From Alphaproteobacteria bacterium (GTDB lineage Bacteria; Pseudomonadota; Alphaproteobacteria; CALKHQ01), in contig CBDDFZ010000001.1 of NCBI GenBank assembly GCA_965227515.1, forward strand, positions 2,208,001 through 2,272,000: a stretch of DNA of 64,000 nt. Reading direction: 5' to 3'. The notes below the pieces were generated by a model. It saw nothing but the letters and a program-made list of their open reading frames with translations, did no database searches and was not told where the DNA came from. A program made the translations under genes and the position numbers. Position 1 is the first letter of the stretch; each line of letters opens with the position of its first letter. Positions 44,711-58,133 of the stretch are shown here, one piece after another.

Positions 44711-47700
44711 ATGAGTGCGACGCTACGGCCCGATCCGCCGCTGTCGGAAATCGTTGAGGGTGCCGGCTCCCCGCTGTCCGAGCTAGCCGACCTGAACCCG
44801 GTCTGGCTGTGGGAGACGGACGCGGATCATCGCTTCGTCTGGCTGTCGCCAAATTGCAGCAGGCTGACGGGATCGAACCCGGAAGACTACATTGGGCGGT
44901 CGCGCGTCGAGCTGTTCAAGCGCTCGTCGGACCAGACCGAGTTGGCACGTCGGCACCTGGACGACCTGGCCCACCATCGCCCGTTCAATGATTTCGTGTA
45001 CCGCCACGTACGTGAGGACGGGAAAGCGGTTTGGTTGTGCGTCGGTGGCCGGCCGTGCTTCGACAAGTCCGGGCGGTTCACGGGTTATCAGGGCAGCACC
45101 GCGCACGTCAGCGCCATGCTTGAGTTCGCGGACCAATCGGTTGCCGGCGAGGCCGCCATGTTGCAGCGCAACGCTGAACTTGAGCGACGCGTGGCGGCGC
45201 GGACCAAGGCTGCTGACGAAACGACAGCGTTGCTGAGCGGTGTATTGGAAGGCATGGAGCAGGGTCTGATAGTCTCTAGCCTCGACGACATGGGCGAGCG
45301 TCGCATCGTGCTGGCCAACGAGCGTGCGAGCGAACTCCTGGAGATGCCCCCCGAGGTCTTGGATGTTGGAAAGTCTGCCGACGAGTTCATCGAGTTTTGC
45401 GCGCAGCGGGGCGATTTCGGCGAAGCGGGCAAGGCAGACGCGCGCGACCGGATCAGGCGTGTAACTGAGGGTTCAACCGAGACATTTGTCCGTCACCTGC
45501 CATCGGGCCGGAGCGTTCGGTCGCACATTAAGTCGTGCATTGACGGCAAGCACATCGTGACGCTGACCGATATCACCGACCTGATCGAGCGCAAACAGGC
45601 ACTGGAATCCTCCAACGAGCTTCTCGCTGAAGTTCTGGAGGGTACGGAGCATGGGTTGCTGGTCGTAACGGACGGCGCCCTCGAGCAGCAAAGGATTGTC
45701 CTGTCAAACCGGCGAGCGGCGGAGATATTGGAGTTCCCGCCGGAGATGCTGGCGGCGGGCGCGCCCGGCAAGGCGATTGTACAAACGTCAATCGACCGTG
45801 GCGACTTCGGCACCGACGGCGAAGATGCCCGCCGCCACACGGAGGTGGCCATACAGTCGGGCAAGCCGACGAACAACATTCGCCGGCTGAAGTCCGGCCG
45901 TATCGTGAAGTCCAAGGGATATCCGCGCCAGAATGGCGGGCTGATCATCACCTATTCCGACATCACCGAAATGAAGGTGCAGGAAGAGGAACTGCGCCGC
46001 GCGCTGGCCGTTGCCGAACTCTCCAAGAGCGTGTTCGATCGCCTGAGCACGCCAGTGCTCGTCAAGAACGAAGACCTTGAATTTGTCCTGGTCAATCAGG
46101 CGTTCTGCGACCTGCATGGCGTGACCAAGGAGCATGTCATCGGGCGGTCCGACATGGACCTGGATCTGACCGGCGGGGACCGGGCCGCCACCTACACCAG
46201 CTACGACCTCCACGTGCTGGAAACCGGAGAATTGCTGGATTTCGAAGAGGACGTTACACGGCCCGACGGCTCGATCCTCTCGACATACTCCCTGAAGACC
46301 AGGGTCGTGACCGAGAGCGGCGACAGGTACGTCGTTGCCGTCATTACCGACGTGTCGACGCTGAAGCAGCGCGAGGCGGATCTGGAAGCGGCACGCCGTG
46401 GCGCGGAAGCGGCCGACCGGGCCAAGTCCGAATTCCTCGCCAACATGAGCCACGAGATCCGCACGCCGATGAACGGCATTCTGGGCATGGGCGAGTTGCT
46501 GAAGGGCACCAACCTGGATTCCCGACAGCGCATGTACGCCGATGTCATCGTGCAGTCCGGCAACCTGTTGCTGAACATCATCAACGACATTCTGGACTTC
46601 TCGAAGATCGCCGCCGGCCAGCTGTCGCTGCATGTCGAGCCGTTCCAACTGGCCGATGTGGTGTGGGATGTGGCGACGTTGCTGTCGACGAGTGCCGACG
46701 ACAAAGGCCTGGACATGCCCGTGCGTGTGCAGCCCGACCTGCCCAGGGCCTTTGTTGGCGATCCGGGGCGCATACGCCAAATCCTGACCAATCTGGTCAG
46801 CAACGCCGTCAAGTTCACGGACAACGGCCACGTCCACATCGACGTTTCCGGCCAGGTCCGCGACGACGACACGGCACGGATTCTGGTCAAGGTGACCGAT
46901 ACCGGCATCGGCATTGCCGAGGAGCATGTCGCGACCATCTTCCAGAAGTTCAGCCAGGTCGACGGTACGGCGACGCGTCGTCACGAAGGTACCGGGCTTG
47001 GACTGACGATCTCCAAGCGTCTGGTCGAGATGATGCACGGCGAAATGGGCGTGGAGAGCAAGCCCGGACGGGGCTCCACGTTCTGGTTCGCCCTGCCGCT
47101 GCCGGTGGCGAGCGACTTCGGCCCGGCCGCGCAGGTCATGCAGGACATTTCCGGACGGCGGGTTCTGATCGTCGACGACAATGAGGTCAATTGCGCCATC
47201 CTGACCGAGCAGCTCGAGAGCTGGCAGGTGACGGCCAAGGCCGTGAACTCCGGCGCGAAGGCGCTGGGTGAGCTGAACAGCGCGGCGGCGCGTGGCGCGC
47301 CGTTTGAGCTCGCCATCCTGGACGCGCAAATGCCGGAGATGGATGGCATGTCGGTGGCCGCCGCCATCCGCCACAGCCCGATGATCAACCGAGTACCGAT
47401 CCTGATGCTGGCATCGGTCGATGGGCCGGAGGATCGATCCATCCTCGACCGGCTGCAGATTTCAGCCCACCTCGTCAAGCCGGCGAAGGCGCCGACCCTG
47501 CTTGCCGCCATCGCCAAGGCGATCGACGAGCCGGTCGAACCGCCGGCCGAGATCGCCGCTCCCGCGTCCACAGCAGGGGAGGATGCCGAACCCGTCGAGC
47601 AGCCCAGTGGCGTTGCCGAAGATGACGGGCGCTCGCTGACCGCGCGCGTGCTGATCGCGGAGGACAACCCGGTCAATCAGATGGTGCTGCAGCAGGTTCT

Positions 47701-48049
47701 GGATAACTGGGGCTACGACTATCTGATCGCCAATGACGGCCAACAGGCTGTCGACCTGTTCCGCAAGCATCGACCGGCCGTGGTGTTGATGGACGTTTCG
47801 ATGCCGGTCCTCAATGGACTGGATGCGACCCGCGCCATTCGCGAGATCGAGGGGCAGGACGGCGGCCACACGAAGATCCTTGGGGTCACGGCCCACGCGC
47901 TGAACGGCGACAAGGAGAAGTGCTTTGCGGTCGGCATGGACGACTATGTGCCGAAGCCGATCGATTGGACCCTGCTGCGCGAGAAGCTGGCGGAGGCCCT
48001 GGCTGACGTCGAAGGCGAGGAAGGACAGCCAGGCAAGATGGTCGCCTGA
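44711..48049 (+). CDS. Multi-PAS hybrid sensor histidine kinase with two receiver domains
   Basis: Several PAS-like units; [16 protein letters not shown]-box; N, G1 and G2 boxes; REC motifs LDAQMP and MDVSMP. Confidence 0.95.
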
Positions 48050-49358: not shown

Positions 49359-50693
49359 ATGACAAGACGCACCTTGACCGCACTGGGCACCGCGCTGGCC
49401 GTTGGCTTCAGCGCCGCCGGCGATGCTTCCGCCCAGGGCATCTCGCTGATTCGCGACGCCGAGATCGAGGCGACGATCCGGGCCTATACCCAGCCGTTGT
49501 TCCAGATCGCCGGGCTGAATCCGAACGCCATCGACGTCTACCTGGTCGATGACGACCGGCTGAATGCGTTCGTGGCCGGCGGCCAGAACATCTTCGTCAA
49601 CACCGGCCTGCTGTTGGCCTCCAACGATCCGGGCGGCGTGATCGGTGTGCTGGCGCACGAAACCGGCCACATTGCCGGCGGCCACCTGGCCCAGCTCCAT
49701 GCCGAACTCCGCGAGGTCAGCGCACAGACCATCCTGGCCTACCTGCTGGGCGCGGCGGCGGCGGTTGCCGCCGGGCGCGGTGACGTGGGTGCCGCGGTTA
49801 TCAGCGGCAGCACCGGCATGGGGCAGCGCTCCTTGCTGGCCTACAGCCGGGCGCAGGAAGCCGCGGCGGACCAGGCGGCGGTCAACTACCTCGACCGAGT
49901 CGGCTGGTCGGCGGTCGGGCTCGCCGACTTCCTGGAACTGCTGGAAGACCAGGAACTGCTGACCGCGAGCCTGCAGGACCCGTATTTGCGGTCCCACCCG
50001 CTGACCCGCGACCGGGTGGACCAGGTCCAGGGCCATGTCGCGCGCTCACCCTATTCAAATGCGCAATTCCCGCCCGCGTTCTATGAGATGCACGAGCGCA
50101 TGCGCGCCAAGCTCATCGGCTATACCCAAGGGGTCGCGCGCACGTTGCAGGTCTATCCCGAGATCGATGTCAGCCTGCCGGCCCGGTACGCCCGCGCCAT
50201 CGCCTATGCCAACCAGGGCAGCCTGGCCAATGCGCTGCCGCTGATCGACAGCCTGCTGGCGGACCTGCCGAACGACCCGTACTTCCTGGAACTGAAAGGG
50301 CAGGTGTTGTTCGAGCATGGGCGGATCGCGGAATCCATCGCGCCGCTGCGTCAGGCTTCCGCCCTGCTGCCGGACGCCGCGCCGATCCGCCTGCTGTTGG
50401 CCCGCGCCGAGCTGGAGTCCCAGGACCCGGCCAAGCTCGCGGCGGTGATCGACAATCTGAGCCAGGCGGCGCGGCTGGAGCCGGACAATCCGGCGATCTG
50501 GTACTTCCTGTCGATTGCCCATGGCCGGGCCGGCGATCTGGGTATGGCGGCGCTGGCCATGGCGGAGCGCAATTTCCACGCCGGCAGCGACGATGAGGCA
50601 CGGCAACAGGCCATTCGCGCGCAGCAGAACCTGCCCGAAGGGTCGCCGGGCTGGCTCCGCGCGCAGGACATCATCTCCGCCACCGACGATTAG
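49359..50693 (+). CDS. M48 family metalloprotease with TPRs (BepA/YfgC-like)
   Basis: Signal peptide; LNAFV, LAHETGH, QEAAAD and LRSHP motifs; TPR-like C-terminus. Confidence 0.9.
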   Translation: MTRRTLTALGTALAVGFSAAGDASAQGISLIRDAEIEATIRAYTQPLFQIAGLNPNAIDVYLVDDDRLNAFVAGGQNIFVNTGLLLASNDPGGVIGVLAHETGHIAGGHLAQLHAELREVSAQTILAYLLGAAAAVAAGRGDVGAAVISGSTGMGQRSLLAYSRAQEAAADQAAVNYLDRVGWSAVGLADFLELLEDQELLTASLQDPYLRSHPLTRDRVDQVQGHVARSPYSNAQFPPAFYEMHERMRAKLIGYTQGVARTLQVYPEIDVSLPARYARAIAYANQGSLANALPLIDSLLADLPNDPYFLELKGQVLFEHGRIAESIAPLRQASALLPDAAPIRLLLARAELESQDPAKLAAVIDNLSQAARLEPDNPAIWYFLSIAHGRAGDLGMAALAMAERNFHAGSDDEARQQAIRAQQNLPEGSPGWLRAQDIISATDD

Positions 50694-50874
50694 GCGGGCC
50701 AGTCAGCCAGCCGAAGAATCAGCGTTAGCGCCGCGTGCCCTAGTCTGGCACTATCGCGCGTGGCGACGGATGACTGCGGTTGCGGCCGCAGGTCGACAGG
50801 CTAGGCGCGATCCGTCGGGCTGCCACAGTGTTGTGGCTGGGCGTTCATGGGCGTGTGGGGCGGATACGGTAGCC

Positions 50875-52428
50875 ATGATGGATGGTGGGGAGCTTGGCGT
50901 GCGTGCAACGGCGCGCCACGACTCATGGCGGCAGGTCGCCTTGGCCGAACGCCTCGCCGGTATCGGCCACTGGCAGTTCGATCCGAAGACCCGCACGTTT
51001 GACTTGTCGGACGGGGCGTTGCGGATGCTCGGGATGGAGCCGCCTGCCGGACCGCCGACGCTGGATGACCTGCTGGCCAGGGTTGCGCCGGACGACCGTG
51101 GCCGGGTCGGTGCCGGGTTTGACGATGCCATACGCAATGGCGCCGAGCTTTCCGTGGAGTGCTCCGTGGATGTGGAGGTTGGCCCGCGCAGGCTGGTGCA
51201 TTGGCGCGGTCTGACGGCGGACGATGGCGACGGCGCGACTCGGTTGGCGGGCTACGTGCGCGACCTCAGCGCCGAGCGGCGCGCCGAGGCGGAACGCATG
51301 TCCAGCGACCAGCGGTTCTTCACGCTGCTGGACAACATGCGCAACATCATCCTGTTGCGCAGCCGCGTCGATGACGAGGATATGCGCGCCGCGACGGTGT
51401 ATGGCGCCGACGCGGGTGCGATCACCGGCGTGTTCGGCGACGGGCCGGTCCACAAGACCCGCTGGCTGGAGGCGATCCACCCGGAGGATCTGCCCGAGTA
51501 CCTGGAGGCGGAGGCCCTGTGCCGTCGCGAGGGCGTGCCCTTCAATCTGCAATTCAGGTTTCGTCATGGCGAAACGGGCGTCGTGAAATGGGCGCGGCAG
51601 GTGGGCTGGATCGTCCGCGACGGCGGCGAGCAATTCTTCGAGAGCTATCTGCTCGACGTGACCGACCTGATCGCAGCGCAGGAGACCGCCTATGCCGCGA
51701 AACTGCAGGCCGAGCGGGCCAGCCAGGCAAAGTCGGACTTCCTTGCCTCGATGAGCTACGAGCTTCGCACGCCGATGAACGCCATCCTGGGGTTCACCCA
51801 GGTGATTGGCGAAGAACTGTTCGGGCCGCTGGGCAACGACCGTTATGTCGAATACATCGGCCACATCGACGAGAGCTCGCGCCATTTGTTGGGCCTGATC
51901 AACGACTTGCTGGATGTGCGCAAGATCGAGGCCTACGACCTGGACCTGCGGGAGACTGAGCTGGATTTGGCGGAGGCCGTGCATTCCGCGGCCGGCCTGA
52001 TTCGCCCGACCGCCGCCAGCAAGAACATCAGCGTGGCCATCGACCATATGGGCCGGATCGGTCTGATGGCGGACAAGCGCGCATTACGGCAGATCCTGTT
52101 CAACCTGCTGTCCAACGCGATCAAGTTCACCGATCGTGGTGGGCGGATCGACGTCGGGGCGGAACGCCTGGCGGACGGCGCCACCCGCATTTTCGTCACC
52201 GACAATGGGTGCGGCATTCCGCCGGAGGATATCAGCCGGATCATGGAGCCGTTCTCCCAGATCAACGCCACCCATGTCGCCAGCGCCGAGCGGGGTGTTG
52301 GACTTGGGCTGTTCCTGGTGCAGCGTCTGGCGGAATGGCACGAGGCGTCGGTGCAGGTGCAGTCGCGCCCCCATGACGGCACCACGGTCAGCGTTGTCTT
52401 TCCCGCCGCGCGAGCCCTGGGTGCTTGA
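50875..52428 (+). CDS. PAS-PAS histidine-kinase-like protein with His-to-Tyr H-box and intact ATPase domain
   Basis: FLASMSYELRTPMN (TAC at 51757-51759); NLLSNAIKF, DNGCGI, EPFSQ and GVGLGL intact. The start codon is uncertain. Confidence 0.88.
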   Translation: MMDGGELGVRATARHDSWRQVALAERLAGIGHWQFDPKTRTFDLSDGALRMLGMEPPAGPPTLDDLLARVAPDDRGRVGAGFDDAIRNGAELSVECSVDVEVGPRRLVHWRGLTADDGDGATRLAGYVRDLSAERRAEAERMSSDQRFFTLLDNMRNIILLRSRVDDEDMRAATVYGADAGAITGVFGDGPVHKTRWLEAIHPEDLPEYLEAEALCRREGVPFNLQFRFRHGETGVVKWARQVGWIVRDGGEQFFESYLLDVTDLIAAQETAYAAKLQAERASQAKSDFLASMSYELRTPMNAILGFTQVIGEELFGPLGNDRYVEYIGHIDESSRHLLGLINDLLDVRKIEAYDLDLRETELDLAEAVHSAAGLIRPTAASKNISVAIDHMGRIGLMADKRALRQILFNLLSNAIKFTDRGGRIDVGAERLADGATRIFVTDNGCGIPPEDISRIMEPFSQINATHVASAERGVGLGLFLVQRLAEWHEASVQVQSRPHDGTTVSVVFPAARALGA

Positions 52429-52615
52429 GTCGTGGTGGGTCGGCTGGGTCGGACCCTCGCGGGGATTTGACACCGACGTCGCGGTTTTCCCGGTCGCCGG
52501 CAATGAGTTGATCGCCGCTGCTGCCCGGTTGATGGCATAGTGGTCCAGAGGGGCACTGACTTGGGGGGCATTCGGCTTCGCCCACGCATGGGTCGAGGCC
52601 GACCGGCAAACACCG

Positions 52616-54277
52616 ATGTCTGCTAGCGATCGCAACCACGTCGATGGGGCGGGCGACGGCGTGAGCCGTGCCGCAGACGATGCGCCGCAGGGCATGGCGG
52701 CATCGATAGCGGCCGGTCCGGACGGCGCGCACTTCGGGCTGGCCGAAATCGAATCGGGCTTCGGCTATTGGGCGATGTCGGAGGGCGGTGCCGGCGTGGC
52801 CATGACGCCCAGCGCCTGCCGCCTCGTCGGGCTGCCGCCCAGCGATGCCCTTGTCGACCTGCAACGCCTGTTCGATCGTTTCACCCCTCCCGAACGGCAG
52901 GCCCTGGATGCCGCGCTGTCGGCGTGCCTGATGCGTGACGAGCCCCTGGCCTTGACGCTGGAAACGGTGCCGATCGACGGTGAGCGCCGGCAGCTCAAGT
53001 TCCATGCGGAGCTGGATGTCTCGGCTGATGGCCGCACACGCCGTGTGTGCGGCGTGTTGCAGGACGTGACCGAAGGGTACGAGGCGGCGCTGGAGCGCCA
53101 GCGCGGCGACCAGCGCCTGTTCTCGTTCCTGGAGAACCTGCGCGACATCGTGTTCTGCCGTGGCAGCAGCACGGTGCGCGTGCAGAAAGGCCTTGCCGGT
53201 ACCGCGCACGTCTATGGCGAGGATGCGTATGCGATTGTCGGCGTGCCGCGGGGGGGCATCTTCGACAACGAGGTCTGGTTGCGCTCGCTGCATCCGGACG
53301 ACCGCGATGGATATCGGTCGGTGCTCGCCAAGAGCTACCGAGCGCGCGAGCCCTACACGGTGCAGTACCGTTTCGGTGGGGCCGACGGCATGCGCTATCG
53401 CTGGGCGCGCGAAACCGGTTGGATCGTGTTCGATCCCGACACTGCCGAGCCGTATCACGATCGCTATATCCTGGATGTCTCGGACCTGGTGACCACGCAA
53501 CAGACGGCGCGGACCGCGCAAATGGCTGCCGAGCGGGCGCTGAAGGCGAAATCAGAGTTCCTCGCCGCGATGAGCCACGAGTTGCGGACGCCGATGAATG
53601 CCATCATCGGGTTCTCTGACATCATCGAGCGCCAACTGTTCGGGCCGGTCGACAACCGGCGTTATCGCGCGTACATCCACGACATTCGCGCCAGCGCCCA
53701 GGCGCTGTTGGGGCTGATCGACGACCTGCTGGACGTGAGCCGTATCGATGCCGGACGCTTCGTGCTTCACGAGGAGGACATCGTGCTTGGCGACCTGGTG
53801 GCCGACGCGGTGCGGGCGGTCCATTCCAGCGCCATGGACGAGAACATCGCCATCGTGTCCAACGTGGCCGACTGCACCGTGCGTGCCGACCGCCGGGGCC
53901 TCTGGCAGATTATCTACAACCTGCTTGCCTATGTGGATCAGTCGGTCTCGTCCTCGGTGCCGCGCTCGTTCGAGGCCGACCTGACCGAGGACGGTGGGAT
54001 CAGGCTGGTGGTGCGCGACGATACCGCCGCGGGTGACGGCCAGAGCGGCGAGCGGTTCATGCAGGGGGATGCCGAAGACGGCGTGGACCGCAGCATGCGT
54101 TCGTTCTGGGTGCTGGACCGTGCGAGCCCGATGCTGGGCATTCCGCTGGTGCGGCGCCTGTTGGATCTGCACGGCGGCACGCTGACCATCCGGCGCGGCG
54201 ATGGCGGCGTGGTCACGGCGGTCGCGACCCTGCCGCCGGGCCGGGTCGTGCAACCGACCGCGGAAGCCGCGGACTGA
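52616..54277 (+). CDS. PAS-PAS histidine-kinase-like protein with intact H-box and degenerate ATPase domain
   Basis: FLAAMSHELRTPMN (CAC at 53576-53578); the N-box reads NLLAYVDQS, G1 RDDTAAG and G2 PMLGIPL. Confidence 0.88.
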   Translation: MSASDRNHVDGAGDGVSRAADDAPQGMAASIAAGPDGAHFGLAEIESGFGYWAMSEGGAGVAMTPSACRLVGLPPSDALVDLQRLFDRFTPPERQALDAALSACLMRDEPLALTLETVPIDGERRQLKFHAELDVSADGRTRRVCGVLQDVTEGYEAALERQRGDQRLFSFLENLRDIVFCRGSSTVRVQKGLAGTAHVYGEDAYAIVGVPRGGIFDNEVWLRSLHPDDRDGYRSVLAKSYRAREPYTVQYRFGGADGMRYRWARETGWIVFDPDTAEPYHDRYILDVSDLVTTQQTARTAQMAAERALKAKSEFLAAMSHELRTPMNAIIGFSDIIERQLFGPVDNRRYRAYIHDIRASAQALLGLIDDLLDVSRIDAGRFVLHEEDIVLGDLVADAVRAVHSSAMDENIAIVSNVADCTVRADRRGLWQIIYNLLAYVDQSVSSSVPRSFEADLTEDGGIRLVVRDDTAAGDGQSGERFMQGDAEDGVDRSMRSFWVLDRASPMLGIPLVRRLLDLHGGTLTIRRGDGGVVTAVATLPPGRVVQPTAEAAD

Positions 54278-54323: not shown

Positions 54324-55712
54324 CTACTCCAGCGCCTTGACGATGTCCTCGCACATCTTCTTGGCGTCGGCGAACAGCATCATTGTGTTGTCGCGATAGA
54401 ACAGCGGGTTGTCGACACCGGCGTAGCCGGAGCTGAGCGACCGCTTGACGAACAGCACCGTCTTAGACTTCTCCACATCAAGCACCGGCATGCCGTAGAT
54501 CGGGCTTGAGGTGTCGGTCTTGGCGGACGGGTTGGTGACGTCGTTGGCGCCGATGACGAAGGCGACGTCGGTCTGGGCGAAATCGCGGTTGATCTCCTCC
54601 AGCTCCAGCACCTCGTCATAGGGCACGTTGGCCTCGGCCAGCAGCACGTTCATGTGCCCCGGCATGCGGCCCGCGACCGGGTGGATGGCATAGCGCACCT
54701 TCACGCCCTCGCGCTTCAGGATCTCCGCCATCTCGCGCAGCGCATGCTGGGCCTGGGCCACCGCCATGCCGTAGCCGGGCACGATGACCACCGACGATGC
54801 GTTCGACATGATGAAGGCGGCGTCGTCGGCGCTGCCCTGCTTGACCGTGCGGTCCTCGTCGTCGCCCGCCGCCGCGGTGGTCTCGCCACCGAAGCCGCCC
54901 AGGATGACGCTGACGAACGAGCGGTTCATGCCCTTGCACATGATGTAGCTGAGGATCGCGCCCGATGCGCCGACCAGCGCGCCGGTGATGATCAGCAGCG
55001 GGTTGTGCAAGGTGAACCCGATGCCGCAGGCCGCCCAGCCCGAGTAGGAGTTCAGCATCGAGATGACGACCGGCATGTCGGCACCGCCGATGGGGATGAT
55101 CAGCAGCAGGCCCAGCAGCAGCGCCAGCAGCACGATCAGCCACAGCAGGATGCCCGGCTCCCAAATCGAGAACAGGATCACCAGCAGCACCAGCAGGCAG
55201 CCGAGCCCCAGGTTCAGCCAGTGCTGGTACGGGAACACCACCGGCTTGCCGGACACCAGGCCCTGCAGCTTGCCGAAGGCGATGATCGAGCCGGTGAACG
55301 TGATCGCGCCGATGGCGGCACCGATGCTCATCTCGATCAGGCTGAGGCCCTTGATGCCCTCGCCGGTGGCATCCAGCAGCCCGAAGGCGGCCGGGTCGTA
55401 GAACGCGGCCAGCGCGACGAACACGGCCGCCAGGCCGACCAGGCTGTGGAACGCGGCGACCAGTTGCGGCAGCGCCGTCATCTTGATGGTGCGCGCGATG
55501 TAGGTGCCGATCGCACCGCCAATGATGATGGCGATCAGGATCAGGATGTAGCTGTCGACCTGCGGGCCGGTCAGGGTGACGATCACCGCGATCGCCATGC
55601 CGGCCATGCCGTACTGATTGCCCCGTCGCGCGGTCTCCGGCGACGACAACCCGCGCAAGGCCAGGATGAAGCAGATGCCGGAGATCAGGTACATGATCGT
55701 GACGAAGGTCAT
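54324..55712 (-). CDS. pntB: NAD(P) transhydrogenase subunit beta
   Basis: FHSLVGLAA, GGADMPVV and IHPVAGRMPGHMNVLLAE motifs. Confidence 0.97.
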   Translation of the reverse strand: MTFVTIMYLISGICFILALRGLSSPETARRGNQYGMAGMAIAVIVTLTGPQVDSYILILIAIIIGGAIGTYIARTIKMTALPQLVAAFHSLVGLAAVFVALAAFYDPAAFGLLDATGEGIKGLSLIEMSIGAAIGAITFTGSIIAFGKLQGLVSGKPVVFPYQHWLNLGLGCLLVLLVILFSIWEPGILLWLIVLLALLLGLLLIIPIGGADMPVVISMLNSYSGWAACGIGFTLHNPLLIITGALVGASGAILSYIMCKGMNRSFVSVILGGFGGETTAAAGDDEDRTVKQGSADDAAFIMSNASSVVIVPGYGMAVAQAQHALREMAEILKREGVKVRYAIHPVAGRMPGHMNVLLAEANVPYDEVLELEEINRDFAQTDVAFVIGANDVTNPSAKTDTSSPIYGMPVLDVEKSKTVLFVKRSLSSGYAGVDNPLFYRDNTMMLFADAKKMCEDIVKALE

Positions 55713-55761
55713 CGGTCATCGCCTCCCGCAGCGGCCGCGAGACTGGTAAGTGCCACGCTGG

Positions 55762-56412
55762 TCATGATTGCTTCTTCCGGAACATGGCCAGCATGCGCTG
55801 GGTGACGATGAAGCCGCCGAATATGTTCACCGAGGCCAGTACGACGGCGACAAAGCCGAACACGCTGGAGGCACCGAATTCATCTAGCCCCGCCGCGATC
55901 AGCGCACCGACGACGATGACGGACGAGATCGCGTTGGTCACCGCCATCAGCGGCGAGTGCAGGGCCGGCGTCACCCGCCAGACCACGTAGTAGCCCACGA
56001 AAACCGCCAGCACGAATATCGCCAGCAGCGACAGGAAATCGCTGCTTGCCGCAGCGGAATGAATGCTTTCCAGCAGATCTTCCGGCGAGGGCCCGGTCGC
56101 AACAGGTGCCTCGTCGATTTGGGTTGCCAGGTCGCGCATCTGGTCGGCGAGGTCGTTGAGCTGATCGCTGACCGGAATTTCAGGCGTGGCCATCGGCTCC
56201 GGCGTCAGGCCGGCGGTGGGATCCGATTCGGGCACCGCCGGTGGCGTCGCATCGGGGGATGCGTCGGGTGCCGCTTCGAGGCCGGCATCCGGGTCCGGTG
56301 CCGCGTCCGGCTCCGTTGTGGTGTCGGGTTCGGGCGTGGTGTCCGGCTCTGGCGTTGGGGCACCATCTTCCGGCGCCAGTTCGCCGCCGTCCGTCGGCTC
56401 GTTTTCGTCCAT
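55762..56412 (-). CDS. pntAB: NAD(P) transhydrogenase alpha part 2 with long acidic N-terminal extension
   Basis: [17 protein letters not shown] and [13 protein letters not shown] motifs; RBS-like gagag before ATG 56412. Confidence 0.9.
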
Positions 56413-56415
56413 GCG

Positions 56416-57855
<1,440 letters not shown>

Positions 57856-58133
57856 GCAGCCATTGCTCTTAGCCCTGGGATGGATCATCCGGGGCGGGGG
57901 ACGCGTCCGCGTGCGCGGCAGCGCTAGGCATGGGCCAAGCTAACAAAAACACAGGGCGCGACAAAGCCCGTTTCGCGGCCTGCGACGCCGGGTCTGCCCG
58001 TCCATCTGCCTGCCGACATGAACCGCCCGTGATTTGCCCAACCCGGCGCGCCCGGCTATGGTTCCATCAAGGGCAAGAACAACAACGTTCCATCTCAGCT
58101 TGATTGGCCATCTCAACCAGATCGGAGAGATCG

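Follow-up and report, generated by a model that had tools for sequence, protein, structure and literature searches.

Background

Histidine kinases are taught as homodimers, and paralogous kinases are thought to evolve away from cross-pairing. The standard proof that autophosphorylation occurs in trans is to mix, in vitro, a His-minus mutant with an ATP-minus mutant. Here we describe two adjacent genes, designated A and B, from a 64,000-nucleotide stretch of an alphaproteobacterial genome (assembly GCA_965227515.1, contig CBDDFZ010000001.1, positions 2,208,001 to 2,272,000; this whole stretch is referred to as the window), in which nature appears to have fixed this laboratory pair of defects in two sister genes. 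The product of gene A has Tyr at the phospho-acceptor position and intact ATP-binding motifs, and the product of gene B has kept the His and has degenerate ATP-binding motifs. A full-text search of open-access papers and preprints returned no description of such a natural pair.

Layout of the gene pair

Both genes lie on the + strand and encode proteins with two PAS domains followed by a dimerization and histidine phosphotransfer (DHp) domain and a catalytic and ATP-binding (CA) domain. Gene A (50875..52428, +) encodes a soluble protein of 517 amino acids. Its two PAS domains (50932..51678, +; residues ~20-137 and 138-268) gave a Pfam PAS_3 match of 48.8 bits and a weak PdeA-like PAS match, and align with the two PAS folds modelled for B. 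The DHp domain of A (51697..51939, +; Pfam HisKA, residues 285-353) contains Tyr295 at the phospho-His position, encoded by TAC at 51757..51759 (+). The CA domain (52057..52410, +; HATPase_c) carries an intact N box (Asn414), G1 box (Asp443-x-Gly-x-Gly), F box and G2 box (Gly474-x-Gly-x-Gly-Leu).

A spacer of 187 bp (52429..52615) separates the two genes. A promoter and terminator scan found neither a promoter-like nor a terminator-like site within it; the sole promoter-like and the sole terminator-like match of that scan fell outside the spacer, in numbers at chance level. Gene B (52616..54277, +) encodes 553 amino acids, with a start codon that is uncertain because further in-frame ATGs lie downstream. 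Its PAS domains (52739..53497, +) match Pfam PAS_4 at residues 66-153 and PAS_3 at residues 204-275. The DHp domain (53516..53758, +) has His321 (CAC, 53576-53578) together with the adjacent E and T of the HisKA phosphatase motif. The CA domain (53873..54238, +) is degenerate, with Tyr439 (TAT, 53930-53932) in place of the N-box Asn, loss of G1 and G2 glycines, and an insertion after G1.

The two proteins align over their full length by BLASTP with 172/517 identical residues (33%, E 1e-70), and their DHp helices are 59% identical. An earlier sequence-only reading of this DNA had described two co-oriented, adjacent PAS-PAS-DHp-CA paralogs, and these are present as open reading frames (ORFs) A and B. 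The peptides that it quoted were all located, DQRFFTLLDNMRNIIL and WARQVGWIV in A and DQRLFSFLENLRDIVF and WARETGWIV in B, as were the contrasting H-box peptides, MSYELRTP in A and MSHELRTP in B.

Reciprocal defects in A and B

To describe conservation we used the 65 positions common to at least 90% of 55 homologues aligned with A and B. The phospho-acceptor position is His in all 55 homologues, Tyr295 in A and His321 in B. Protein A keeps 61 of the 65 conserved positions and B keeps 47. Within the DHp domain the two are alike (31/34 in A, with the His lost, and 32/34 in B, with the His present); within the CA domain A keeps 28/29 positions and B 13/29. The four deviations of A are H295->Y, L301->M, G354->Y and G491->A. 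The claim that A combines the Tyr with intact motifs was thus borne out for Tyr295 and the N, G1, F and G2 boxes, although G354->Y and G491->A mean that A is not wholly canonical. In B, the Mg-binding Asn of the N box is replaced by Tyr439 and the neighbouring K, F and T are lost too; the first Gly of G1 is replaced by Thr470, two Gly of G2 by Ser504 and Met506, the GT motif is gone, and extra residues are inserted after G1. The alignment with the 55 homologues therefore agrees with the earlier description of B as a protein that keeps its His and has degenerate N, G1 and G2 boxes in a frame that is open at full length.

Profile scores gave the same picture. Both proteins exceed the Pfam HisKA cutoff of 26.9 bits (A 56 bits, B 67.7 bits). 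Against HATPase_c, for which the cutoff is 26.4, A scores 98.2 bits and B, at 21.8 bits, falls under it, and against a family CA profile built from the 55 homologues A scores 139.9 bits and B 25.0 bits. When the B CA domain alone was searched against 1.84 billion representatives, 708 matches were obtained at E<=1e-3, the best foreign match had an E of 5.9e-10, and only B itself was returned at E<=1e-10. Of 246 proteins (244 from databases, for the most part homologues, together with A and B), 244 matched the H-box pattern; 243 of these have His and one, A itself, has Tyr, a rarity that goes beyond chance. Of the features expected of a class I kinase, the acceptor His is missing in A and present in B, and the ATP-binding CA domain is present in A and lacking in B. 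Judged from sequence alone, catalytic and acceptor functions are placed on separate polypeptides, as in a split kinase, with the CA motifs in A and the His in B.

The DHp domains also differ at the tip of the helical hairpin (A segment 310-340, a region chosen post hoc), where the net charge is -4 in A and +2 in B, compared with a homologue mean of -1.69. A charge as low as that of A occurs in 4 of the 55 homologues, and none has a charge as high as that of B. The hairpin tips of A and B have drifted to opposite charge, which is a weak hint for pairing. The DHp specificity positions, located by their offsets from the His, are the same in A, B and their paralogs and indicate no partner.

Origin by tandem duplication

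The phylogeny of the pair was examined with a quick 53-row tree (A and B, 41 high-coverage matches selected out of 240, the proteins of G004 and G007, and eight paralogs from the same genome) and with a careful tree of 28 of these rows, 25 being left out. A and B are sisters in both, with a Shimodaira-Hasegawa-like approximate likelihood ratio test (SH-aLRT) value of 92 in the first and an ultrafast bootstrap of 96 and SH-aLRT of 92 in the second, and the seven-member clade that holds them is supported at 99/98 in the 28-row tree. All five other members of this clade have the His and canonical N, G1 and G2 boxes. The two clade members with readable loci, G004 and G007, each have a single kinase gene with no second kinase ORF at the locus, and in each of them the best match of A and the best match of B are one and the same gene. 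A and B also have in common a Met where 54 of 55 homologues have Leu. Since A and B are sisters and the rest of the clade is ordinary, a tandem duplication of one ordinary kinase gene took place in this lineage, and both defects postdate it. The paralogy asserted previously is therefore that of true sister genes from a tandem duplication, and the defects are not only reciprocal but derived.

The branch leading to B is the longer (1.35 changes per site, compared with 0.87 for A). Relative to the outgroup P0122, identity in the CA core is 31% for B and 52% for A, and in the DHp domain 62% for B and 58% for A. On these identities, the excess divergence of B is restricted to the CA core.

No close orthologue of A or B was present in the collections searched beyond a species-level cluster. 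In word-indexed searches the best database identities were 40% for A and 35% for B, and each protein is the single member of its own cluster. Three genomes of the only other genus of the family gave matches to the kinase core of A and B only. A short-fragment search with the H box gave six matches, 46-77% identical over partial coverage, and no strain copy. Among metagenome contigs, 181 stretches matched the pattern and none encoded a relative of A or B.

Strain evidence for the Tyr codon and for selection

Parts of the window are present in 19 public sequencing runs from 10 studies. Four runs from four studies (X2, X3, X4 and X5), representing strains 1-3% apart, were compared with the window, and the synonymous and non-synonymous counts reported below refer to the 40 of 92 differences that were listed. 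One X3 contig, from a different study and strain, has 0 differences over 51569-51888 and hence carries TAC at 51757-51759. Elsewhere X3 differs from the window, for example at 10 letters in 541 over 51017-51557, and no T>C change occurs anywhere in X3. Because this contig is identical at 51569-51888 while X3 diverges elsewhere, TAC stands in a second strain. This answers both doubts raised with the original description, since the Tyr cannot be put down to a sequencing error and is not confined to one isolate. The codon is also covered in X2, X4 and X5, where the 200-317 bases compared contain 3, 1 and 6 differences, respectively, and the chance of an unlisted difference at 51757 is estimated at ~1-3% per run.

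In B, 21 of the 27 listed differences are synonymous, against an expectation of 24.6% (binomial p 1e-8), and in A the figure is 7 of 11, against 27.9% (p 0.014). The four listed non-synonymous differences of A lie at residues 7-121, within the first PAS domain, and none in the DHp-CA region. As the strain differences are mostly synonymous, neither gene is decaying; on these counts both A and B are under purifying selection. A single X2 contig (51897-53195) runs from the end of A through the spacer into the first part of B, and the adjacency is kept in that strain.

Some further features of the strain data concern the locus as a whole. Divergence in X2 is uneven, with 20 letters in 858 bases at the 5' part of A, 30 in 1184 at the 3' part of B, and 8 in 1299 across the A CA domain, the spacer and the first PAS domain of B; recombination or a local sweep may be responsible. 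Both X2 and X3 have a 3-base insertion (CGC) at 50805, 70 bases upstream of the start of A in the spacer that follows the peptidase gene. Joints in the read map (such as 51779->52113) and bins of very high depth over the H and N boxes were attributed to conserved kinase pieces of other organisms, with 88% likeness, and were disregarded.

Related kinases in the genome

A census of the genome identified 44 ORFs related to the kinase core of A. The H-box pattern is present in 40 of these, 38 with His and two with Tyr. The second Tyr ORF (C1:589620-592232, - strand) encodes 868 amino acids with PAS_4, PAS_7, HisKA and HATPase_c (99.3 bits) matches and intact N, G1 and G2 boxes. Among solved structures, Caulobacter DivL is its closest relative (4q20, 167.3 bits), and on this similarity the ORF is presumably the true DivL of the genome. 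The identification of A itself with DivL was rejected, as the best solved relative of A is GacS (7z8n) and DivL 4q20 ranks 11th at 83.6 bits. Protein A thus has the DivL-like Tyr in place of the phospho-His and is not a DivL orthologue; because it groups with His-bearing kinases and a separate ORF is nearest to DivL, its Tyr arose independently. Similarly, B was rejected as ChpT, having no PF10090 match at E<=0.1, and a separate ChpT is encoded at C1:1378310-1378678 (PF10090, 59.6 bits). The analogy to DivL and ChpT drawn in the sequence-only reading consequently holds by mechanism and not by identity, since separate genes for a DivL-like protein and for ChpT are present in the genome.

The best-scoring family models for the A and B cores are those of PleC/DivJ/PdhS (NCBIfam NF050805 and NF041593), nearest to DivJ and PdhS. 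These matches concern the kinase core only, and the scores (A 207.2/189.7, B 104.8/111.6) are far under the cutoffs of 1000/2000. With the family CA profile, B has the second lowest score among the 44 kinase ORFs. The lowest, 17.9 bits, belongs to a 403-amino-acid kinase-like ORF at C1:1571764-1572972 (+) with an H box, which is a candidate ATP-dead kinase in its own right.

Structure models

An AlphaFold2 model of B (mean predicted local distance difference test score, pLDDT, of 82.8) contains two PAS folds, a long DHp hairpin and a CA core. The PAS blocks have pLDDT values mostly of 84-97, with a loop at 186-195 under 50 and an average of 45-71 over residues ~171-220. The CA core is still predicted to fold (pLDDT 84-97), with the lid at 472-503 under 55. 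Foldseek searches with this model returned ordinary PAS-kinase structures and folds only. For the DHp-CA part, target-normalised TM-scores were highest, among the chains noted, for RetS (0.80 for 7n0e_B, 0.72-0.74 for 6dk7 and 6dk8), with DivL 4q20_B at 0.73; FixL PAS-domain entries scored 0.76-0.77 on the PAS part.

A heterodimer of A 268-517 and B 294-553 was modelled with a score of 0.51, compared with 0.09 for the best of three controls, a result rated as weak support in a family for which kinase dimers have already been solved. Of 157 solved complexes, 116 attain the mark applied, as do 2 of 215 mismatched pairs; those that do so with a score of 0.60 or less comprise only 18 of the solved complexes and both of the mismatches. 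At least 77% of contacts recur between runs, and partner pLDDT is at least 68. Because solved kinase dimers exist, the pass of the A:B model may reflect memorised structures.

Neighbourhood of the pair

The pair is flanked on the A side by an M48/TPR peptidase gene (49359-50693) and on the B side by the convergent pntB-pntA genes (54324-57888). Further upstream lies a hybrid kinase gene (44711-48049, +). Its product of 1112 amino acids combines HisKA and HATPase_c with several PAS domains and two receiver domains, and its Pfam matches do not include an HPt domain. It had been claimed that no response regulator is adjacent to the pair. This is correct for stand-alone regulators, of which there is none among the 14 ORFs between 38.8 and 62.7 kb, and overlooks the two receivers of the hybrid kinase. 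That kinase would need a phosphotransfer partner, for which B is a speculative candidate. On the other side, the transhydrogenase alpha genes (55762-57888, - strand) carry long low-complexity stretches: the 216-amino-acid alpha protein with four transmembrane segments has a Pro/Glu/Asp/Thr-rich N-terminus, and the 490-amino-acid PntA has an Ala/Lys/Pro-rich tail of ~100 residues.

A proposed split kinase

The reciprocal-defect pair is confirmed, in one lineage only, and represents a variant of split kinases and kinase pseudoenzymes. We tentatively favour, at somewhat less than even confidence, the reading that duplication, followed by complementary degeneration, has left A and B as the halves of a single signalling kinase. 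An ordinary homodimeric PAS-PAS histidine kinase was duplicated in tandem, after which many substitutions and an insertion in the CA domain deprived copy B of ATP binding, and one C-to-T change, judged against the CAC retained in B, deprived copy A of its acceptor His. The two proteins would still pair via their similar DHp helices, and the intact CA domain of A would phosphorylate His321 of B in trans. From B the phosphoryl group would go on to a response regulator that is not linked to the pair, probably one of the DivK/PleD type that partners the PleC/DivJ-like kinase core, and free B may dephosphorylate that regulator. No output would arise unless both proteins were present, and the signals of all four PAS domains could be integrated. 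This split-kinase reading is plausible and is favoured because it accounts for two rare losses on side-by-side sister genes, and because it accounts for the retention of the ATP site by A and of the DHp domain by B. In its strictest form, the pair would be a natural obligate heterodimeric class I kinase in which the sole working site is formed in the A:B complex by the A ATP site acting on B His321, giving an AND gate with free B as a phosphatase; we regard this form as possible, though less likely than not. If it is true, the phosphatase activity of free B would be the arrangement that is predicted to give switch-like responses in split kinases.

Several considerations weigh against this proposal. 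No orthologous pair was found outside the species-level cluster in the collections searched. The H-to-Y change is one transition, known only in strains 1-3% apart, and could be much younger than the decay of B; if so, B long functioned beside a normal A. In X2, X4 and X5 the TAC codon is probably present on indirect evidence, 52 of the 92 differences being unlisted. X3 has a 1-base deletion at 53950 (B CA domain, codon 445) in one contig of depth 2.3, which may be an assembly error or a frameshift that truncates a dispensable B CA domain in that strain. The 187-bp gap parts the two genes, and their co-transcription is putative. The score of the predicted A:B complex gives weak support and comes from a family with solved dimers. 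The heterodimer route requires phosphorylation in trans, and cis autophosphorylation, which is described as following the handedness of the DHp loop (PMC6798134), would defeat it; the literature searched was silent on whether PleC/DivJ-type kinases autophosphorylate in cis or in trans. Finally, DivL is described in PMC4211667 as keeping its CA motifs without a His acceptor and serving no partner.

Alternative explanations

The main rival, which we also consider a real possibility though short of probable, is that A and B are pseudo-enzymes that act separately, A passing no phosphoryl group to B. Protein A would be DivL-like, its DHp-CA region sensing a phosphorylated response regulator and allosterically controlling another kinase. 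Passages of PMC4211667 describe DivL as without kinase or phosphatase activity, as binding DivK~P and as binding ATP weakly, and the DivL-like gene of this genome likewise pairs the Tyr with intact N, G1 and G2 boxes; A, however, is not a DivL orthologue, GacS 7z8n being its best solved relative and DivL only the 11th. Protein B would be a His-bearing, ATP-dead dimer of the RedE/ChpT/Spo0B kind, acting as a phosphatase of a regulator or as a shuttle of phosphate from a receiver domain. RedE is described as not autophosphorylating, as receiving phosphate from a dual-receiver protein and as a phosphatase (PMC2755868), and B retains the His with the E and T of the phosphatase motif, yet PF10090 does not match B, and ChpT is encoded by a different gene. 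One candidate phosphate donor would be the upstream hybrid kinase, with its two receiver domains and no Pfam HPt match, although two unrelated genes, one of them on the opposite strand, part it from A and B. With PleC/DivJ/PdhS-like cores and nine other ORFs of the genome at E<=4e-43 against the A core, a many-kinase network in which such proteins could act is plausible. A and B might even bind in a purely regulatory way, as RetS and GacS do, and RetS kinase-region chains are the ones with the top TM-scores for the B DHp-CA part among those noted. This explanation nevertheless needs two rare unrelated losses to coincide on adjacent sister genes.

We consider it unlikely that the pair is a recently broken module, in which B had long been an ATP-dead, phosphatase-only paralog working against kinase A, and the Tyr of A is a young loss-of-function allele that became fixed in this species-level cluster and has no new role. 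The A defect is indeed a single C-to-T transition, compared with the many substitutions and insertion in B, and the Tyr is documented in strains 1-3% apart only, no deeper relatives having been found that could date it. Against this, A still has an excess of synonymous changes among the listed differences (7/11 compared with 27.9% expected, a small sample), the four listed non-synonymous changes, likewise a small sample, all fall in the first PAS domain and none in DHp-CA, and A has kept 28 of 29 CA positions over a branch of 0.87 changes per site.

An artefact of sequencing or assembly at the Tyr codon, for which one base change from CAC to TAC would suffice, is highly improbable given the X3 contig from another study and strain with 0 differences at 51569-51888 and the lack of any T>C change.

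Significance of the pair

If A and B complement each other, they would provide a clean example of neutral complementary degeneration that locks duplicated subunits into an obligate heteromer, and the first HisKA-type counterpart of the CheA3/CheA4 split kinase. They would also offer a ready system for the study of signal integration and of cis/trans geometry, and since no membrane segments are predicted in either protein, purification should be easy. If they do not complement, A would be an independent second origin of a DivL-type Tyr pseudokinase, useful for understanding why Tyr recurs at that position.

Comparison with known systems

Protein A resembles DivL in having Tyr in the SYELRTP context, upstream PAS domains and retained CA motifs (as described for DivL in PMC4211667; PDB 4q20). 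Unlike DivL, A has His-bearing nearest relatives and lies outside the DivL orthologues.

Spo0B is a His-bearing, non-autophosphorylating, kinase-like phosphotransferase. ChpT is described in the same terms (PMC9430884). Like these proteins and RedE, B combines a His-bearing DHp domain with a CA-like fold that is predicted not to bind ATP; unlike them, it has two PAS domains and a HisKA-type DHp domain and lacks a PF10090 match. RedE differs from B further in keeping a good HATPase_c domain, according to PMC2755868.

In Pseudomonas aeruginosa, the two different sensor kinases RetS and GacS are described as binding via their DHp regions, with RetS inhibiting GacS and siphoning phosphate, and each protein having its own acceptor sites (PMC12189002; PMC8498467). 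The DHp-CA fold of B is similar to RetS kinase-region chains (TM-score 0.72-0.80), to about the extent that it resembles DivL 4q20_B (0.73). Unlike A and B, RetS and GacS are neither sister paralogs nor reciprocally defective.

The pair also mirrors the NtrB-type trans-complementation test, with A corresponding to the His mutant and B, through Tyr439, to the mutant of the Mg-chelating Asn. Mixing His-minus and Asn-minus mutants is described as restoring activity in trans-acting kinases, for example RT-HK H152A with N256A (PMC12148442). The laboratory test mixes engineered alleles of one gene in vitro, whereas the defects here are natural and fixed in paralogs that are 33% identical.

A close parallel to our proposal is the natural split kinase CheA3/CheA4 of Rhodobacter sphaeroides, in which, as described in PMC3591291, catalysis and acceptor are carried on two polypeptides, neither autophosphorylates alone, and the His-bearing partner also has a phosphatase role. 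The same report notes that 1.7% of HisKA proteins have no HATPase but retain the phosphatase motif, and that these might therefore be split kinases. A and B are like CheA3/CheA4 in that, as read from their sequences, the ATP-site motifs and the acceptor His lie on separate polypeptides. CheA3/CheA4 is a class II system that arose by whole-domain loss; A and B, in contrast, are full-length class I HisKA paralogs that have kept all of their domains and carry point defects, and for which the complex and the trans-phosphorylation are what we propose.

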